Shown piece after piece: positions 1 through 8,928 of a stretch of DNA of 64,000 bases. Where the stretch lies: NCBI GenBank assembly GCA_000002435.2, contig CM018792.1; one strand, 5' to 3'. Both the position numbers and the translations under genes were made by a program. The stretch comes from Giardia intestinalis (lineage: Eukaryota). The notes below the pieces were generated by a model, which saw only the letters and a program-made list of their open reading frames with translations, had not been told where the DNA came from and did no database searches. Positions within the stretch are counted from its first letter, which is position 1. Every line of letters starts with the position of its first letter.

Positions 1-253
1 CGTACTGCAGATAGACTTAGCTTACCCTGAAGATTACCCCGGTGACATAGAAGAAAGTAACTATGTTCTGGTCTATGGAATAAGCTTCGATCTACACAAC
101 CTTTCGCCTCTAGGAAAGTTTCTACCTGAGGTTGTCTCACTGTTGTTTTATTATGGAGCAGAGTCCGCAAGAGCATCACACAGGTTCGAACACCCCTTGC
201 TGTTCACTCTTTATTCTGCTGGATATGCAGCGTATCACGGGAGAAAGTACCTA

Positions 254-3200
254 ATGGCGGACTCGTACTTTCAGCGTTTAGCGGAGAGCATCGGGAGCAC
301 TCTCTTGACACAGCAGCAGCAAGGGCAAGGGCAAGATAAGCAGCGGCTAGATATCACCACGGTTCGTGTCCTGGCATCTCTGTCCGTGACTAGATTGATA
401 GCAGTCGTTGGCTTAAATAAGCACGAGAAGGCATATGACGCAGCAGTCCGTTTCTATGCTACTCTGCGGTGGTTCTTCTTGACTCTTCTTAGCTGGTATT
501 CACAGACTATTGGCACTAGTAGGGTATCAGAGACGCGCGCGAAACTCTTCACTGAGCATTATACTCACCTTGCGGAAACGCTTCATTCAGTACCTATTCA
601 AGCGCGCCCCCTTGTCTCTCTGGAGACGTGCTTCTTACCTTGCATATACGACCTGCTCTTTCTTCTTATTCTCGATACTGCGGAAGATCTTACTTCTGCT
701 CAGCTCTTGGAGCTTATTAGTTCCTACTCGCCAAACTCGTCTACGGCCCTCTCTATGCTCTGCGCAAGCACTAAGCAGCTTATTGGTCTCTCTCGTTCTC
801 GGACAATCTTTGACACAGCTGAGAAGACCTCTGCTGTTACATATCTGTTAGACCTTGTCCTGCGATCCAGCATGTTGTCTCTGCAACCTGAGATACTTAA
901 GTTACTCGTTACACCCTTTGTCCTCCAGCTAACCTCTTTCTCAACAGAGCACCATGCCTTAACTGGTCAGGCTCTTATGGTACTGCAAACTGTTCGGGAT
1001 AGATTATTGTGTCTTTCGCCGACGTCACTCTTCAGGTTTACCGTTGACTTGTTTGGACTATTCGATCCAGCAGTTCTTCTGCAAATCACTGATTCCGAAG
1101 AGGGGCAGTTCTTGCATACGTTAATTATTGATATTCTAAATGTGCTTGGCACCGCACGGTTGGCTATAGATTTCCATTCATTTTTTCCCTTATCACAGCA
1201 ACCCGATGGTCACAGTCCTGGAAATAATAAGACCTACTGGGACCTTGAGCGCTATATTAAGTCTCTCTCTTATCTGTTCGAGGTAACGATAACACTAGTT
1301 CGTCAAATAAGACATACATACATTTATTTTCACACAATTAATAGAAAATATAATAAATTGTTGGGAGAAAATAAGGACAATCCAAGTCAAGCACAACAGA
1401 CAGAAGCACTAGCGTCACTGAAGGAAAAGTACCACCTTTCGTCTAAGGAAATTGAGACTCTGTTAGCCTTCCGGAACGATTCTCTTTCTCCGCTCCAAAA
1501 CCAGCTAGATTTGACTATAAAGCTAAATATTCTTCTTGGGAACACCTTTGGTACCATCCTTCTGTGTTCTCAGCATCAGAGAATTGTGCCCTGTAGTGAG
1601 CTGGTGTCCTCCCTTAACTCATATTTCTATAAGTGTTCAGCGTGTATAGGGCTAGTCCTGTGTAACTTGGATGAAATTCCTATTCGTGGAGTCCCGGCCA
1701 GGGAGCAGGCAGTGTATGCAAAGGCATCACTAGTAAAGGAGCCACATGATGTACATGACATTGCTGTTCTGGCACCACTTCTGATCGATTTCAAGCTGTC
1801 GGAGCTCGTTGAGTCTAAGATGCTTGTGTATAAGCCATTATCCACAGACATCTTTAAGTATCCCAATCTTTCCAATGCAATCCTACATGTGTTGGGCAAT
1901 TTCTTTGCTGGGTTCGGATTTTGTGTCTCCGTGGCCGCGAATCGTCCTTTTGGCGACAACCCACACACACATGATGCATCCAAAATGATGGTTACAACTC
2001 CCACAGCTAGATGTGGTACTAAGCTCAACACCAAGGTTTATAGCTCTCCTTTATCAAGCTCTGCTACCTCACCATGTCAACAAGAGTATGGCCGCGGGAA
2101 GATGCCGCCCCAGCTGGCCCCAGAAGCTGCCACGGTGAATTGCTCTACAAGCTCTAGTACATCCACTGAGCAAGAGCCTTACAATGCATATCTTTCCCTC
2201 ATACAATATTATTACTTGGAATCCTCGCCTGATCTACCATTCCTTAAGCCCATTACTATCTTTCTCAATACACTTTTTGCATCTGGCATCATACTGGGAA
2301 ATCGGATCGCTCACAGGAATAAGGAGGAGCGTGTTTATCATTGCTCGTTAAGTATCTCTGATTTGGGGCTAGAAAAGCTAACGTCTACTGAGCTATATTC
2401 GTTTGCAGAAAATATTTGGTACTTTGTTCGATATTACAGCAATTCACTCTTTCAATGCACTACCTACTCCGATCTACTTTTTGGAGCTTATATGCTGGAA
2501 TTCATACGCTTTTCTCGCTTCAACTCTTTGAACGAGGTTCTCCTGTGCCAATTTATTAACTATTCCCAGCTATATTGGTCGGATAGCCTCGCGTCAGCAG
2601 AGCCCCTTGTTGTCAAATCCCTTGAGCCATGCTTTCCAACGTTCATCCTTCTGGATCTACCGTCTGCTCGAGAAGTGTTCGAACCACATAAGTCCGTCCA
2701 GTTATCGGTGCAAAAGGTGCTCAGCTGGTTTCAGACCATTGGCTTTGGCGCGTCCAAGTTCTACCTCCTGACTGAGCTTTTATATCTTTCCATGCAACAG
2801 CTTCTCCGACACAGCAAGTACCAGATGTTTCCAGAGTGCTATGGACTCATTGGGAAAATGCTGCATCTTGTTGAGGCCTTGTTGGACAGGCTTTATGAGC
2901 TAGACTCTAACACTGTCGAAGCATACACATATACAAAGCACTACGTGGAGATTCTGTACCGCCTCACGACTAAGGTAGCAGTACATTTGTCCACTCACCT
3001 TATACCATCTACTCATTTCTATAGGGAAGCTGCAAGAGACGCGGCATCGCTTCTAATTTCAACTCGTTGTCTTAAGTACTACAACGACACATTATTTCTT
3101 CTCACCACTAATCAGTCGAAGTCAAGTGCAGTGACGAGTTCAGATTTTTATTTATCTATCGCATTTATCGCGAATATCTTGGAATTAGTTTTATTATGTA

Positions 3201-4804
3201 ACTTGTCTGATGATGCAACAAAGTCGCGCGCAGTTAATTGTCAGCTTTTGAAACTAGTGATGCTTTCATGGAAGTATCTAAAACGTAACGCTTTTCTTAA
3301 CAGCACAAACATCTGCTCATTTGCACGCGTTTGCGCACTCCTTACTCTGTTTGAGCTAATCATCTTCCCGTCCTGCAAGGACCTTGCAGCACTGGATACA
3401 TCTTTCTCCATATTCACTGAGCTGCATGAGCACATCACGTTTCCCTTGTTCTTCTTAGCTTATGCCAAAGAACTAGTTGGAAAGTACTCGTTACTTCTCA
3501 GTGAGTGGTTTACTAAATGGCCGGATACGAATGTAGCAATTTCTGAGGTTAAGCTCACAAAGCTTTTAAGCATCTATACCGTTGCTGTTAAATCCACGGG
3601 GTGCGCACGGATACACTTGTACGCATCAGCGTTCGTCCGGAAGCTGTTGTCAACGGCGCACGTATGCAAGTTGTTGTCGCATAGAGAACAACAAGAACTC
3701 CAGACATTCTGCGCCACCATAGAGGTACATGCATGCTATTGGGACGCTGGAGCACTGGATTATGAGAGTCAATCGGCGACCGCGTTGCTCACTGAATTGG
3801 AAACCCCCATTAATAAGAAGCCAGAATATTCTGTGCAACTGGACGATGTTCGGTTGTCTGCAGAGCTGCTTTCTATCCCTACTCCAAAGAACCTCTCCGA
3901 TATATCGATTATCCCTCTCATTTCAAATGGATTTCTTCAGGAGATGCGGCCGCGACATATACCACAGACTGAGCTACCCCACTACTCTTCTATCGCAGAC
4001 CTAAAGCTTTCTGTAGCCACCCAGTATGCTATCGTGTTCAGTTTCACAGTTCCATTTGCAGGTACAAAGGAGGCCAACATGCTATCGGACCTTTTCACTT
4101 CTGTAGATGCTGACAAGAACAATCCCGATACATTTATGGACAAGATTGATGGGCTAATGGAAGGCACGCTCAACAAGAAGGTCAAGCTTCTGATGGGCCA
4201 TGATATGCCCACATACAATATCACGACGTCCTTGGGAGAACAGGTCGAGAGACGATATAACGTGATCTACTCTAAGAGGCTCTTGGAGCTAGTGTCTAAT
4301 GAGTTTTATTCTCTCGCTGACTGTGACACAAGCGACAATGCGATTGCACCGTCTACCCCTTCTTCTAAGGCACCTGTGATCAAAACCAACGAGCTAACTC
4401 GGCGGTACATGAACAAAGAAGAGCGAAATCGCCGTGCACAGTACCTTCTACAAAACGCACTTGATGAATTTGCGGATGAAAACTTATTGACAGCTCGCTG
4501 CGAGCCCCTGCAGGAAGAAGACCTATCCTCAGCAGTAATTACAAAGCCCGACCGTATTGCCGATGATCTAAGTGGTAAACTTATTCGTATCTCTACGGAT
4601 TCCGATGATCACGATGATCAAGTCCAAGGTAACCTTGAAGCTGCCATCTGTGCGCATGTCCATGAAGACCATGGGAGTGCAAAGGAATGCCCTGCAACAG
4701 AGTTTAGCGGGGATGATAACGAGTATGTTGACTTTGATGTAGATGACGACACAATTGAGGGCCAGTTGCCCGATTCTATCGTAACAGCTCTTCGCCAATC
4801 ATAA
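254..4804 (+). CDS. large hypothetical protein (~1516 aa), Leu-rich with an acidic C-terminal tail; no recognisable domain
   Basis: Uninterrupted 4.6-kb ORF. The ORF-track start at 143 is a TTG; the first in-frame ATG is at 254 and an in-frame TAG lies at 47-49. C-terminus is DSDDHDDQ...DFDVDDD. A frame this long in a ~50% GC genome is very unlikely by chance. Confidence 0.55.
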   Translation: MADSYFQRLAESIGSTLLTQQQQGQGQDKQRLDITTVRVLASLSVTRLIAVVGLNKHEKAYDAAVRFYATLRWFFLTLLSWYSQTIGTSRVSETRAKLFTEHYTHLAETLHSVPIQARPLVSLETCFLPCIYDLLFLLILDTAEDLTSAQLLELISSYSPNSSTALSMLCASTKQLIGLSRSRTIFDTAEKTSAVTYLLDLVLRSSMLSLQPEILKLLVTPFVLQLTSFSTEHHALTGQALMVLQTVRDRLLCLSPTSLFRFTVDLFGLFDPAVLLQITDSEEGQFLHTLIIDILNVLGTARLAIDFHSFFPLSQQPDGHSPGNNKTYWDLERYIKSLSYLFEVTITLVRQIRHTYIYFHTINRKYNKLLGENKDNPSQAQQTEALASLKEKYHLSSKEIETLLAFRNDSLSPLQNQLDLTIKLNILLGNTFGTILLCSQHQRIVPCSELVSSLNSYFYKCSACIGLVLCNLDEIPIRGVPAREQAVYAKASLVKEPHDVHDIAVLAPLLIDFKLSELVESKMLVYKPLSTDIFKYPNLSNAILHVLGNFFAGFGFCVSVAANRPFGDNPHTHDASKMMVTTPTARCGTKLNTKVYSSPLSSSATSPCQQEYGRGKMPPQLAPEAATVNCSTSSSTSTEQEPYNAYLSLIQYYYLESSPDLPFLKPITIFLNTLFASGIILGNRIAHRNKEERVYHCSLSISDLGLEKLTSTELYSFAENIWYFVRYYSNSLFQCTTYSDLLFGAYMLEFIRFSRFNSLNEVLLCQFINYSQLYWSDSLASAEPLVVKSLEPCFPTFILLDLPSAREVFEPHKSVQLSVQKVLSWFQTIGFGASKFYLLTELLYLSMQQLLRHSKYQMFPECYGLIGKMLHLVEALLDRLYELDSNTVEAYTYTKHYVEILYRLTTKVAVHLSTHLIPSTHFYREAARDAASLLISTRCLKYYNDTLFLLTTNQSKSSAVTSSDFYLSIAFIANILELVLLCNLSDDATKSRAVNCQLLKLVMLSWKYLKRNAFLNSTNICSFARVCALLTLFELIIFPSCKDLAALDTSFSIFTELHEHITFPLFFLAYAKELVGKYSLLLSEWFTKWPDTNVAISEVKLTKLLSIYTVAVKSTGCARIHLYASAFVRKLLSTAHVCKLLSHREQQELQTFCATIEVHACYWDAGALDYESQSATALLTELETPINKKPEYSVQLDDVRLSAELLSIPTPKNLSDISIIPLISNGFLQEMRPRHIPQTELPHYSSIADLKLSVATQYAIVFSFTVPFAGTKEANMLSDLFTSVDADKNNPDTFMDKIDGLMEGTLNKKVKLLMGHDMPTYNITTSLGEQVERRYNVIYSKRLLELVSNEFYSLADCDTSDNAIAPSTPSSKAPVIKTNELTRRYMNKEERNRRAQYLLQNALDEFADENLLTARCEPLQEEDLSSAVITKPDRIADDLSGKLIRISTDSDDHDDQVQGNLEAAICAHVHEDHGSAKECPATEFSGDDNEYVDFDVDDDTIEGQLPDSIVTALRQS

Positions 4805-4898
4805 TATTTGTACTAGTAATTGTTAAAAAATAAACTTTCTAGATTGTAAACTTTATTTTACGTTTTTATTAAATCTAAAAAAGTATGTTGGGGGCTTG

Positions 4899-6479
4899 AT
4901 GGCCGCCATGTTCCCCTTTGGCCTCTATGAAAGCGAGTCGCTTCTTGGTCAGCTTCTTGGTCACAGGGTTGCAGGAGTAACACTCAAGGCATGTAGGATA
5001 AGTGAAACTCCGGAGCTTGCCGTGAAAGTGGCTTCTCTCGCAAACGTGGCAAATGACGCTAAAATCAATCTGATCAAGGACCTGCGTTCTCTTAAGGGAA
5101 TTACACACAAGAATATCTTGGTATATACAAGTATCTACGTGACCAGTCGCTCAATCTTCATCGAAGTGGAACTCATGAAGGGAAAGTCTCTAAGTGACCA
5201 CCTTCTGGCCCACAGACGTCATGGCAATATTCCTGAATTGCTAGTGAGAGATATACTTCATCAGCTATCCAAGAGGCCTGATTATTTGCACAGAAGTTGC
5301 AGTAGGCAGATTGTACATGGTAATTTGATTCCCGAAGATATATTCTACGACAACGGCGCAATGCTCATCGCATCCTATGGACTACTTCTACCAACCAACA
5401 CTTTTATCCACAACTCCGCAGCGGTCATCAAGGTCTTGCCAGTTCGTGCTTAATGCACAGGTTAGACAACAGCACCAGATCGAGTACACCGCTGTGTGGA
5501 CTGTCAAACCTTATTCTCTGGATGACCAATCTTAGTCTATCGGAGAGCATATCATCAAGTGACCTAGATATCCCCTGGCAAGCAGCGTATTCACATGATC
5601 TACTCAGTCTTACTAAGCATATTGAAGGGCTATCTATTGCAGAAGCGTCATTCTCTCTTATAGAGTGTTTGACAATGATCAGAAATGTAGCATTGGGGCA
5701 CACACAATTATTCCATCAATCCATTTACCCTTGGAACACCGAAGCAGCTCCTGACATCTATTGACAATGACAATCAGGAAGAGATAGAAAAGTACATTGC
5801 ACGCCTCAATTCGTGTCCACCGAGCGCTTTAGTAAGTGCCATCAACAAACGAAGGACAACCTCTGCAGCTACCATGTGTAGAAAAATAGCAAGAAGGGGT
5901 CTTTCCATGTGCAATCCCATATGCTCAGGAATAGATGTGCACGAACCAACACCACTGATGAAGGAGATTTGGTAGAGTAATAGCTGTGAACCCATCCTAA
6001 TTAAAGAGCACATGACGGCACGCTGCAATGGCATAACCGCTCTACTGATTAGCGCCTACAAAGGATGCCATACATGTTTGATCCATCTTGCCTCGGAAAT
6101 GGGTATACAGAGCTGGTCTGAGACAAGAGCTCTGATGTTTGCTGTTAACAGTGGTCATGAGAAGTGTGCAAGGCTACTGCTGCCAGAGATGGGAATTCAG
6201 CGACACGATGGGATGACCACCCTGATGCTTGCAGCAGAACTAGGGAACGTGAACTGTGTTAAAATGTTGATAGATTGTGAAAAGGAGATGCAGACGAAAC
6301 AAAAGTGAACTGCCTTGCACTATGCAGTCGACAACAACCATGTGGAATGTGTTAAGCTGTTACTATTTGCTGAAGAGGACGTCCCTAACGCCAAAGGCCA
6401 GAGGTGTTTGGCCATAGCAAAGATGAAATATTTTCGCGAGTACGTTCAGCTGCTCTCTCAAGAGCTAAGCAGGCCTTAA
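4899..6479 (+). pseudogene. NEK-type protein (pseudo)kinase fused to ankyrin repeats, disrupted by a frameshift and by in-frame TAA, TAG and TGA stops
   Basis: Segment 4899-5453 encodes a kinase N-lobe with a degenerate Gly loop (LGQLLGHRVAGV), AVK, HKNILVY, a VHGNLIPEDI catalytic loop (no HRD Asp) and SYG in place of DFG. The frame shifts at ~5453 (ATG overlapping TAA). Segment 5976-6479 encodes ankyrin repeats (ITALLISAYKGCHTCL, TTLMLAAELGNVNCVKMLI, TALHYAVDNNHVECVKLLL) broken by TAG 5973 and TGA 6306 in the same frame. Confidence 0.5.
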
Positions 6480-6567
6480 CATGCCTAACTCGGGCGAATT
6501 CACTCTAGAGCGCGGAATCAAAAAATAATGTAAAGTGCGCCTTTTTTACCGACCAAACAAAAACCCT

Positions 6568-8928
6568 ATGCCTCTGGTGGACAAAAAGGATTGGTTTCAG
6601 GCCATTGCGAACAAGAACCATTCGGCGATAAGGACTGCCATCCCTCGATTTGCGGGGAGCACGAATGGAGCAGGCGATACGGGGCTCATAATGGCTGCGC
6701 GCCTCAACGATGTGGAACTTGCGCACCTCCTTGCCAAGCAGGAGGCGACCCTCACTAACCCTGATAATCTCACTGCCCTTATGATTGCCGCTCAGTCGGA
6801 CCATCCGCGCGTGGTTGAGGTTCTTGCTCCCCTGGAGTACTCCATTTTTCTTCCCAACGGCCGCACAGCCCTTTCGCTTGCTGCGGAGGCAGGCCACGAC
6901 GAGTGCGTGATGATTTTGGCCAAGTATCTATCCACAGAGCGTGACTGCGACAGCCTCAGCGCCCTTGACTATGCTGTCAAGAACGACAACCTTAATTGCA
7001 TAAAGGTCATGCTGAACACACACAAGTTCACGATAGATGACATCACGCACACCCTCAGGTACGCGCACGAGAAGGACGCCGTGGACACAGTTAGGGTCCT
7101 TGAGGCCGAGGCTGAGCGAATCGCCAACCTTTGCTATGCCCAAGCAACGGCAACACAATCATCGGTGACACCTATCGAGCAGAAATCGCCGGGCTCTATG
7201 CTCGGCTCCCGCGTCGGCGGCCCGCGGTCTACCCAAAGCATGAACGGCACCAGCTCCATGCGCTCTGTCGGCATGACCGAGTCGATGCGCTCGGGCGGCC
7301 GTATTGTTACAAGGTTCGCTGACCTTGCAACGTACGAGAAGGAGCTCGACATGGCACTCACCAAGCTCGACAAATACGAGGTCGACCGTACGGTCCTCAA
7401 GACGGAGAACACGAGGCTCTTCGAAGAGAACACGGAGCTCAAGAAGAGGATCAAGATACAGCAGGACCAGCTCGATCAGATCCGTGTGCTTGTGCAGTGC
7501 AAGTCTCAGGACGCCGAGGAGATCGCCACGATCTGCAGGCACTTTATCAACGATTTGCAGGCCGAGAAGGCGAAACGCTCCAGGGAGTATGAGGAGCTCA
7601 AGCAAGATGTCGCCATCCTCAAGGCGAAGAATCAGGCCTTCAAGGTTGACTTGAACACTCTCATGAGCACGAAAATCGAGCACGAGAAGGCCGCCCAGTA
7701 TCTTAAGCAGAACATTGTCAGCAAAGACGAGGTCCTTAATGCGCTTCAGGACCAGAATCGTGAGGTCATTGAGCAGGCCAAGATGCTTGAGCACAAGTCC
7801 CAAGACCTTGCGATAGAGATTGCTAAGCTTTCAGACAACGTCGCTAGGCACAAGAACGAAGCTATAGGCCTCCGTTCCGTCATCGAGCTCAAGGATAAGG
7901 AGATCGAGGATGTGAAGGCGCAGGTTGAGGAGATTAATGAAGTTGTAAGCACATACAGACAGCGTGCTCTCGCCGTTGAAGACGAGAAGAACGAGATTCT
8001 TAATGAGGTTGCAAGGCGCAAGGCTGCCTATAATGCCCTTGAAAGCAAGAAGGAGGAGCTTGAAAACCAGGTCATAGGACTCGCAGACGAGCTTACCAAG
8101 TCTTCTGTTGCGCTCCAGGCGCTTCAAAATGGCATTTCCAACCTGGAGGATCCATTTTCCATCGCTGCCACCGGGGACTTCATTAACTATGCAGATGACG
8201 ACGATACGAGTATTGCGAGGAAGGTCCTTACGGGTGACAAGGGGGCCATGCTCCGCCACATTGCCGAGAACGAGATAGCCGCTTATGGGAAGGCGAACGA
8301 GGAATCGATCAGAAAGGCGAGTGAGTATGTCTCCAAGAGCGAACTGGAGTGGCTGACGGAGCCCGTGATGCAGCAGATTAAGCAAGCGATTCTCAAGGGA
8401 GATTACGACACCGCCAGTCAGCTGACAAACAAAGTACCGCTGGACTTCACAAACCTCCGTAACGAAACAGGCCCGAAGACGTATTTGATGAGCGCAGCCG
8501 AGCACGGTGAGCTCCTTAAGGTTTGGTTCTATCGTCCCTACCAAGCCGGAAAGCAGGACCACCACGGGAAGACGGCCCTTATGTACGCGGCCGAGAATGG
8601 CCACTCTGAATGTGTCAGGCTCCTTCTCGACCGCGAGGCCGGCATGACCCTCGAGAACGGATGGACGGCATTGATGTCTGCAGTCCTCAACAATCACACG
8701 GAGTGTGTGAAGATCCTGGAAACGAAGGAGGGCGGTCTTTCCACGAACGAGCTCCATGAAGAGGGGGCTGGCTTCACTGCCCTCATGCTCGCTGCCAAGC
8801 TGGGCCATACTGAGTGTGCGCACTTCCTGCTGAACAAGGAGGCGCCCATCAAGCACTCCACCGGGCGCAGGGCCATCTTCTATGCCAAGAGCGCAGAGAT
8901 TAAGAACCTCCTCTCCCTTTTCAACTGA
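6568..8928 (+). CDS. ankyrin-repeat / coiled-coil / ankyrin-repeat protein (Giardia Protein 21.1-like)
   Basis: N-terminal ankyrin repeats (GDTGLIMAARLNDVELAHLL, TALMIAAQSDHPRVVEVL, TALSLAAEAGHDECVMIL). A ~300-aa heptad-rich coiled-coil (ELKKRIKIQQDQLDQIRVL...). C-terminal ankyrin repeats (KTALMYAAENGHSECVRLLL, FTALMLAAKLGHTECAHFLL). First ATG is at 6568; the ORF-track start at 6535 is a GTG. Confidence 0.8.
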   Translation: MPLVDKKDWFQAIANKNHSAIRTAIPRFAGSTNGAGDTGLIMAARLNDVELAHLLAKQEATLTNPDNLTALMIAAQSDHPRVVEVLAPLEYSIFLPNGRTALSLAAEAGHDECVMILAKYLSTERDCDSLSALDYAVKNDNLNCIKVMLNTHKFTIDDITHTLRYAHEKDAVDTVRVLEAEAERIANLCYAQATATQSSVTPIEQKSPGSMLGSRVGGPRSTQSMNGTSSMRSVGMTESMRSGGRIVTRFADLATYEKELDMALTKLDKYEVDRTVLKTENTRLFEENTELKKRIKIQQDQLDQIRVLVQCKSQDAEEIATICRHFINDLQAEKAKRSREYEELKQDVAILKAKNQAFKVDLNTLMSTKIEHEKAAQYLKQNIVSKDEVLNALQDQNREVIEQAKMLEHKSQDLAIEIAKLSDNVARHKNEAIGLRSVIELKDKEIEDVKAQVEEINEVVSTYRQRALAVEDEKNEILNEVARRKAAYNALESKKEELENQVIGLADELTKSSVALQALQNGISNLEDPFSIAATGDFINYADDDDTSIARKVLTGDKGAMLRHIAENEIAAYGKANEESIRKASEYVSKSELEWLTEPVMQQIKQAILKGDYDTASQLTNKVPLDFTNLRNETGPKTYLMSAAEHGELLKVWFYRPYQAGKQDHHGKTALMYAAENGHSECVRLLLDREAGMTLENGWTALMSAVLNNHTECVKILETKEGGLSTNELHEEGAGFTALMLAAKLGHTECAHFLLNKEAPIKHSTGRRAIFYAKSAEIKNLLSLFN

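Follow-up and report, generated by a model that had tools for sequence, protein, structure and literature searches.

A unitary pseudogene of a NEK kinase/ankyrin gene, GL50803_14261 (GK058), in Giardia intestinalis WB

The GK058 locus among the known Giardia Nek genes

The Giardia kinome was surveyed by Manning et al. (2011, Genome Biol 12:R66; PMC3218828). Thirty kinase pseudogenes were counted in the WB isolate, 29 of them Nek-GL4, and recurrent loss of catalytic function was reported among the Giardia Neks. In Additional file 1 of the survey, the gene GL50803_14261, i.e., GK058 in the kinome nomenclature, was entered as a pseudogene of the Nek-Unclassified group with 1:1:1 orthology. On Manning's count, GK058 would be the single pseudogene outside Nek-GL4. 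A full-text literature search for the gene ID GL50803_14261 found no paper.

The locus described here is the same one. The window, i.e., the whole stretch of 64,000 nt that was analysed, comes from G. intestinalis WB, assemblage A, sub-assemblage AI. In Table S1 (PMC3218828), the sequence given for the gene is the frame-1 translation of the window starting at 4908, stops included. GL50803_14261/GK058 of the survey and the present locus do not differ biologically, and its pseudogene status is already known from 2011. Positions 4899-6479 (plus strand), i.e., ATG at 4899 to TAA at 6477-6479, were assigned to this pseudogene as a unitary one, with a probability of about 97%. By exact look-up, the first ORF of the remnant (184 aa) is XP_001709478.1, described as 'Kinase [Giardia lamblia ATCC 50803]'. 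To the 2011 entry, the present analysis adds a lesion map at base resolution with the homologies at the junctions, the dating of the major lesions before the AI/AII split, rate evidence for neutrality, and the recognition that the intact orthologues carry a second degenerate kinase-like domain.

The Nek-GL4 pseudogenes of WB resemble GK058 in being NEK kinase and ankyrin genes disabled by stops and frameshifts. However, they are by-products of rapid strain-specific duplication, whereas GK058 is the loss of a single gene: an intact single-copy orthologue stands at the syntenic position in related lineages. Because the gene is single-copy with 1:1:1 syntenic orthologues, it is a unitary pseudogene.

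The remnant lies between two conserved genes. Positions 143-4804 hold the 3' part of a gene of 1684-1686 aa, which starts upstream of the window, has no Pfam domain and is found in assemblages A, B, and E (WB-DH omega 0.17). The next gene, at 6568-8928, was identified by exact look-up as Ankyrin repeat protein 1/Protein 21.1 of G. intestinalis WB clone C6. Its 90%-identity cluster includes the orthologues of GS (assemblage B), P15 (assemblage E), and DH (sub-assemblage AII). Protein 21.1, although it adjoins a dead gene, shows more than 90% protein identity across assemblages A, B, and E and a WB-DH omega of 0.05, and is far more conserved than the proteome average of approximately 79% between WB/P15 and GS (Manning's figure).

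The intergenic stretch 5' of the ATG (4805-4898, plus strand) is AT-rich and shows a weak blastn match to the P15 upstream sequence, i.e., 75-81% over 53-81 nt. A promoter may be kept in this stretch. In an Rfam scan of 4700-6700 at E ≤ 1, nothing was found above threshold. One snoRNA match of 18.9 bits, against a gathering score of 40, was taken as chance. Some Logan assemblies list two minus-strand ORFs as genes, 5428-5703 (91 aa) and 5774-6034 (86 aa). Since not every sub-assemblage AII isolate has them, they are probably spurious.

Intact orthologues in assemblages E and B

The protein search with the full conceptual translation returned mostly generic ankyrin proteins, and useful information came only from the P15-type cluster. 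EFO63581.1, 'Kinase, NEK [Giardia lamblia P15]', of 1493 aa, belongs to the 90% cluster of the remnant's best homologue, and its accession is adjacent to that of P15 Protein 21.1. A search with the P15 kinase region returned no GS orthologue and no WB paralogue; the word prefilter limits its sensitivity, and it says little on paralogues. The orthologous loci were found via the conserved neighbour Protein 21.1, i.e., by retrieving the DNA around this gene.

In P15 (assemblage E), an uninterrupted ORF of 1493 aa was found between the same 1686-aa gene and Protein 21.1. This orthologue is GLP15_4724 (EFO63581.1; locus L008:6001-10482). In assemblage B, ORFs of 1485/1486 aa were found at the syntenic position in four assemblies (L004:5456-9913). 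The comparison with orthologous loci of other assemblages, which the initial annotation had proposed, thus gave intact ORFs in both E and B.

The order of the intact protein is kinase, a second and very degenerate kinase-like domain, linker, ankyrin repeats, low-complexity spacer, and more ankyrin repeats. In the P15 orthologue, Pfam recognized Pkinase and, after it, multiple Ank matches, which is the arrangement of the NEK kinase and ankyrin family. Among PDB sequences, STE20-type kinases, i.e., SPAK/OSR1 (1e-22), came closest to the first kinase domain of P15, and NEK1 followed at 5e-14; the Nek assignment of the gene rests on the kinome phylogeny of Manning et al. (2011; PMC3218828). The second kinase-like domain covers approximately aa 370-520 of P15, where Pfam reports none. 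Its only kinase matches were weak ones to human NEK7 (E = 0.02), with SYG standing opposite HRD and GLAG opposite the DLG motif. The intact orthologues would accordingly be described as having a predicted tandem pseudokinase architecture. The linker weakly resembled designed armadillo-repeat proteins, which was not regarded as meaningful.

The NG86 omega of P15 against GS was 0.16 for the whole gene and 0.11 when only the codons that WB retains were counted, with dS saturated. These low values mean that the intact gene is under purifying selection. In the first kinase domain, the catalytic Asp of HRD is lost: HGN, which aligns with HRD of SPAK, is present in WB, P15, and GS, and DH has HSN. 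The Lys of VAIK and the Asp of DYG are kept in P15 and GS. Because intact P15 and GS also have HGN, this triplet is ancestral and not part of the decay. By its motifs, the gene would already have been a pseudokinase while it was still conserved, as is typical of Giardia Neks. In this respect the ancestor, with its first kinase lacking the catalytic Asp in A, B, and E, fits the pattern of a scaffold pseudokinase with ankyrin repeats. The inactive Neks are, however, intact and conserved, as the P15-GS omega of 0.11-0.16 exemplifies for GK058, whereas the WB copy is structurally destroyed. Manning et al. (PMC3218828) call the orthologues 'active'. Since the first kinase domain of the orthologues has HGN for HRD, the word probably means intact rather than catalytically competent.

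Lesions of the WB remnant

In the first ORF, Pfam Pkinase matched residues 18-162, i.e., profile positions 5-144 of 263, which is the N-terminal half only (E = 3e-14). Ank_2 was matched in the last third of the remnant (E = 1e-27), and no Pfam match was found in the frame-shifted piece at 5453-5764. The ATG frame is open for 184 codons up to TAA at 5451-5453 and is then closed by eight close stops up to approximately 5700. Between 5432 and approximately 5760 another frame is open. From approximately 5700 the ATG frame is long and open again, broken only by TAG at 5973-5975 and TGA at 6306-6308.

The lesions were mapped by blastn, MAFFT, and tblastn with the P15 and GS orthologues as reference. 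Relative to P15, the WB remnant consists of three collinear blocks. Approximately 520 of 1494 codons survive, and approximately 2.9 kb of the gene is absent. The missing segments were found nowhere else in the window.

Block 1 (4899-5372, plus strand) corresponds to P15 aa 6-168 by blastn and tblastn, and holds the part of the first kinase that Pfam recognizes, i.e., the N-lobe and, after it, the catalytic loop with HGN, as far as beta-8. The glycine-rich loop carries a perfect 12-bp tandem duplication, GCTTCTTGGTCA at 4940-4951 and again at 4952-4963 (plus strand), and also a G to R change. The duplication was found in WB only; it is absent from DH, five Logan assemblies of sub-assemblage AII, P15, and GS.

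At the end of block 1, deletion 1 removes 912 bp relative to P15 (924 relative to GS), with the junction at 5372/5373 (5370-5375, plus strand). The deletion spans from LIA/DYG of kinase 1 to GA/SYG of kinase-like domain 2. Microhomology at the junction is limited to GCA, then TATGG nearby, with nothing more in common. The initial annotation had read SYG as a substitute for DFG and HGN as a substitute for HRD. Both triplets are present, but HGN is shared with P15 and GS, and the SYG of WB is no mutated DFG but the second-domain triplet that the deletion placed beside beta-8 of kinase 1.

The sequence at 5373-5700 (plus strand) is, by comparison with P15, the remnant of the second kinase-like domain from SYGLLLPTN, the equivalent of its catalytic loop, onwards. 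It had been taken for a frame-shifted C-lobe of the same kinase, which it is not. It is read in the original frame to 5430 and in a shifted frame from 5431/5432 to 5700. Compared with P15 and GS, the shift is due to a 1-nt deletion at 5430/5431, which is also found in DH and the other sub-assemblage AII isolates. The TAA at 5451-5453, where the 184-aa ORF stops, arises because this deletion puts the reading out of frame, and is no nonsense substitution. The original frame is restored at 5700/5701, where a CACACA run has lost 2 nt, again relative to P15 and GS (all on the plus strand).

Block 2 continues at 5701-6233 (plus strand) with the linker and the first ankyrin repeats, i.e., P15 aa 571 to approximately 745. 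It contains the TAG nonsense codon at 5973-5975, where P15, GS, and the assemblage-E-like sequence L001 have CAG (Q). Compound deletion 2 follows on the plus strand with junctions at 6233/6234 and 6246/6247, and removes approximately 1983 bp in total relative to P15, i.e., approximately 345 bp and approximately 1638 bp. Between the two junctions stands a 13-nt island, GCAGAACTAGGGA (6234-6246). The island matches an intervening P15 ankyrin repeat at 12 of 13 positions, and the next best match in the gene is 9 of 13. The ankyrin-repeat register is kept across all three pieces.

Block 3 (6247-6479, plus strand) corresponds to P15 aa approximately 1415-1493, i.e., the last ankyrin repeats and the C-terminus, and ends with the original stop TAA at 6477-6479. 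The TGA at 6306-6308 (plus strand) lies inside an ankyrin repeat, as first described, and replaces TGG (W); P15 and GS both read KQKWTALHYAV at this site. The change from TGG to TGA creates AGTGAAC at 6304-6310, which fits the Giardia polyadenylation consensus, AGTRAAY. This is probably a coincidence.

The initial annotation of a decayed NEK kinase/ankyrin gene, with a kinase N-lobe and ankyrin repeats, is borne out by the Pfam matches, the intact B and E orthologues, and the lost constraint described below. Its three stops are located correctly, all in the ATG frame, although only TAG and TGA are nonsense substitutions. The single frameshift that it listed corresponds to the 1-nt deletion, and the 2-nt deletion was not listed. 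The largest lesions (912 bp and approximately 1983 bp), which are visible only by comparison with the orthologues, and the 12-bp duplication at 4940-4963 were also absent from its list.

Loss of constraint and age of the decay

Seven sequences of sub-assemblage AII were compared, i.e., DH (GCA_000498715.1), five Logan assemblies, and one ENA metagenome scaffold. All lesions except the 12-bp duplication are common to the seven. Private lesions were also found: a 1-nt deletion at 5131 in DH, an insertion at 4876 in one other sequence, and a 1-nt deletion at 5981 in three. The decay of the remnant is therefore still continuing.

In the remnant, WB and DH differ by 69 substitutions, which are spread as 25, 17, and 27 over the three codon positions. 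The dN of the remnant, 0.036, equals the dS of seven pooled flanking genes in the same comparison (approximately 0.033, with dN approximately 0.004). Divergence was 3.2-4.2% in the remnant and 0.5-0.8% in the adjacent Protein 21.1 gene, i.e., a difference of 5-6 times. The remnant drifts neutrally, and purifying selection has been lost. The NG86 omega of the whole remnant was 0.4-0.7, below 1, which was attributed to small counts and the equal-rates site model and not to residual constraint. On the retained codons, omega between WB and P15 was 0.25, compared with 0.11 between P15 and GS. As a rough inference, this difference suggests that the gene has gone without constraint over much of the A branch.

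These rates also bear on whether the locus still functions, as a truncated scaffold protein of 184 aa or as a whole remnant read by readthrough or frameshifting. Both the ATG and the AT-rich sequence before it persist, and because of this a transcript or the 184-aa peptide may still be made; the ORF was also once annotated as a protein. SAGE values are given for GK058 in Additional file 1, row G285 (PMC3218828), i.e., R = 11.42, maximum 105.2, 'Trophozoites & Encyzoites'. These values are identical to those of the main text for WNK ORF 90343, may reflect a misaligned row of the spreadsheet, and were set aside as evidence of transcription. The equality of the remnant dN with the flanking dS counts against a functional truncated protein. 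Omega of the 184-aa ORF itself was 0.9-2.1 between WB and six sub-assemblage AII sequences. The ORF codes for only half a kinase fold, its glycine loop in WB is altered by the duplication and the G to R change, and in DH it contains the 1-nt deletion at 5131. Programmed recoding is also contradicted: where WB has its stops and frameshifts, the B and E orthologues have sense codons or an unshifted frame, conserved recoding signals are absent, and the downstream frames show relaxed constraint and extra isolate-specific indels. Residual function of the locus is thus considered very improbable, and the remnant is best regarded as a pseudogene without function of its own, presumably without a product.

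The assemblage A isolates are unusually diverse at this locus. Over 4805-6570, up to 75 substitutions in 1.77 kb were found between the window and the isolate sequences L009-L015. The similarity forms a mosaic, i.e., L010 is near WB in the 3' part and not in the 5' part, which points to recombination between sub-lineages of A or to the sorting of old alleles.

The initial annotation had left room for an allelic or assembly artefact. In general, stops and frameshifts of a tetraploid genome could be sequencing or assembly errors, or belong to one allele, with an intact NEK gene present in WB. No tool result backs this. Built from other read sets, the Logan assemblies SRR2642205 and SRR3178010 match the window with 100% identity, the former over 18,928 bp and the latter over 14,069 bp. 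The exact 184-aa ORF recurs on 120 contigs and the 57-aa ORF ending at TGA on 169 contigs. The key lesions are common to DH and six more sub-assemblage AII sequences of different projects, and the approximately 2.9 kb of the gene is simply missing. The protein search, of limited sensitivity, gave no long ORF of the A type. Artefact is therefore effectively refuted. Because the lesions are invariant in independent WB and AII assemblies, the major ones are genuine; they are fixed in every assemblage A isolate sampled and predate the AI/AII split. The gene had also been described as caught in the process of pseudogenization, which does not suit an old and heavily deleted remnant that has lost approximately two-thirds of its length.

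The direction of change was read from dS, i.e., 0.56 for WB-P15, 1.79 for WB-GS, and 1.68 for P15-GS. This pattern makes B the outgroup to A and E at the locus, and the long form of B and E is therefore ancestral. The opposite polarity, in which the short A form is ancestral and the B and E genes grew by internal insertions or duplications, draws on the repeated domain types of their extra segments (the second kinase-like domain and more ankyrin repeats), but it has next to no probability, given a long form common to the outgroup B and to E, frameshifts and nonsense codons in A where B and E have sense codons, and the island at 6234-6246 as a leftover of an internal repeat.

With the long form as ancestral, the decay in assemblage A can be described as follows. 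The ancestor was a protein of approximately 1490 aa, with an N-terminal NEK-type kinase already without the catalytic Asp (HGN) and a second, very degenerate kinase-like domain, and with a C-terminal part of a linker and two ankyrin-repeat blocks split by the low-complexity spacer. After the A/E split and before the AI/AII split, the gene was disabled and approximately two-thirds of it lost. The 912-bp deletion joined the two kinase-like domains at the short DYG/SYG similarity, and the compound deletion of approximately 1983 bp fell between ankyrin repeats, in repeat register. The small events were the 1-nt deletion, the 2-nt deletion, CAG to TAG, and TGG to TGA. The mechanism of deletion would be intragenic repeat or microhomology-mediated recombination, or slippage, and the order of the events is likewise inferred. 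Since the loss, neutral drift has been accompanied by isolate-specific lesions, i.e., the 12-bp duplication in WB and the 1-nt deletions in other isolates.

In the assemblage-E-like sequence L001:96-2966 (Logan SRR14195738_3913), 32 differences from P15 were found in 2966 bp (1.1%). This orthologue has two nonsense codons of its own, W510* (TGG to TAG) and Q807* (CAA to TAA), at sites unlike the WB lesions. Nonsynonymous changes from P15 number 22 and synonymous changes 8, with an omega of 0.82. Tentatively, GK058 may be dispensable across the A/E clade and was perhaps lost more than once. If the L001 variants are real and homozygous, the same double-pseudokinase NEK would be dying independently in a livestock lineage. 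Such independent losses, if true, would be a natural experiment on which scaffold Neks of Giardia are expendable.

For annotation, GL50803_14261 should be recorded as a pseudogene and not as a 184-aa 'Kinase'. Beyond this housekeeping the finding matters little, as it concerns an ordinary and already catalogued unitary pseudogene. Because the remnant is 5-6 times more diverse than the adjacent gene, it could serve as a neutral-rate marker in the population genetics of assemblage A. It is also a clean and datable example of how a Giardia NEK/ankyrin gene decays, i.e., by in-register deletions between internal repeats, small indels, and nonsense mutations.
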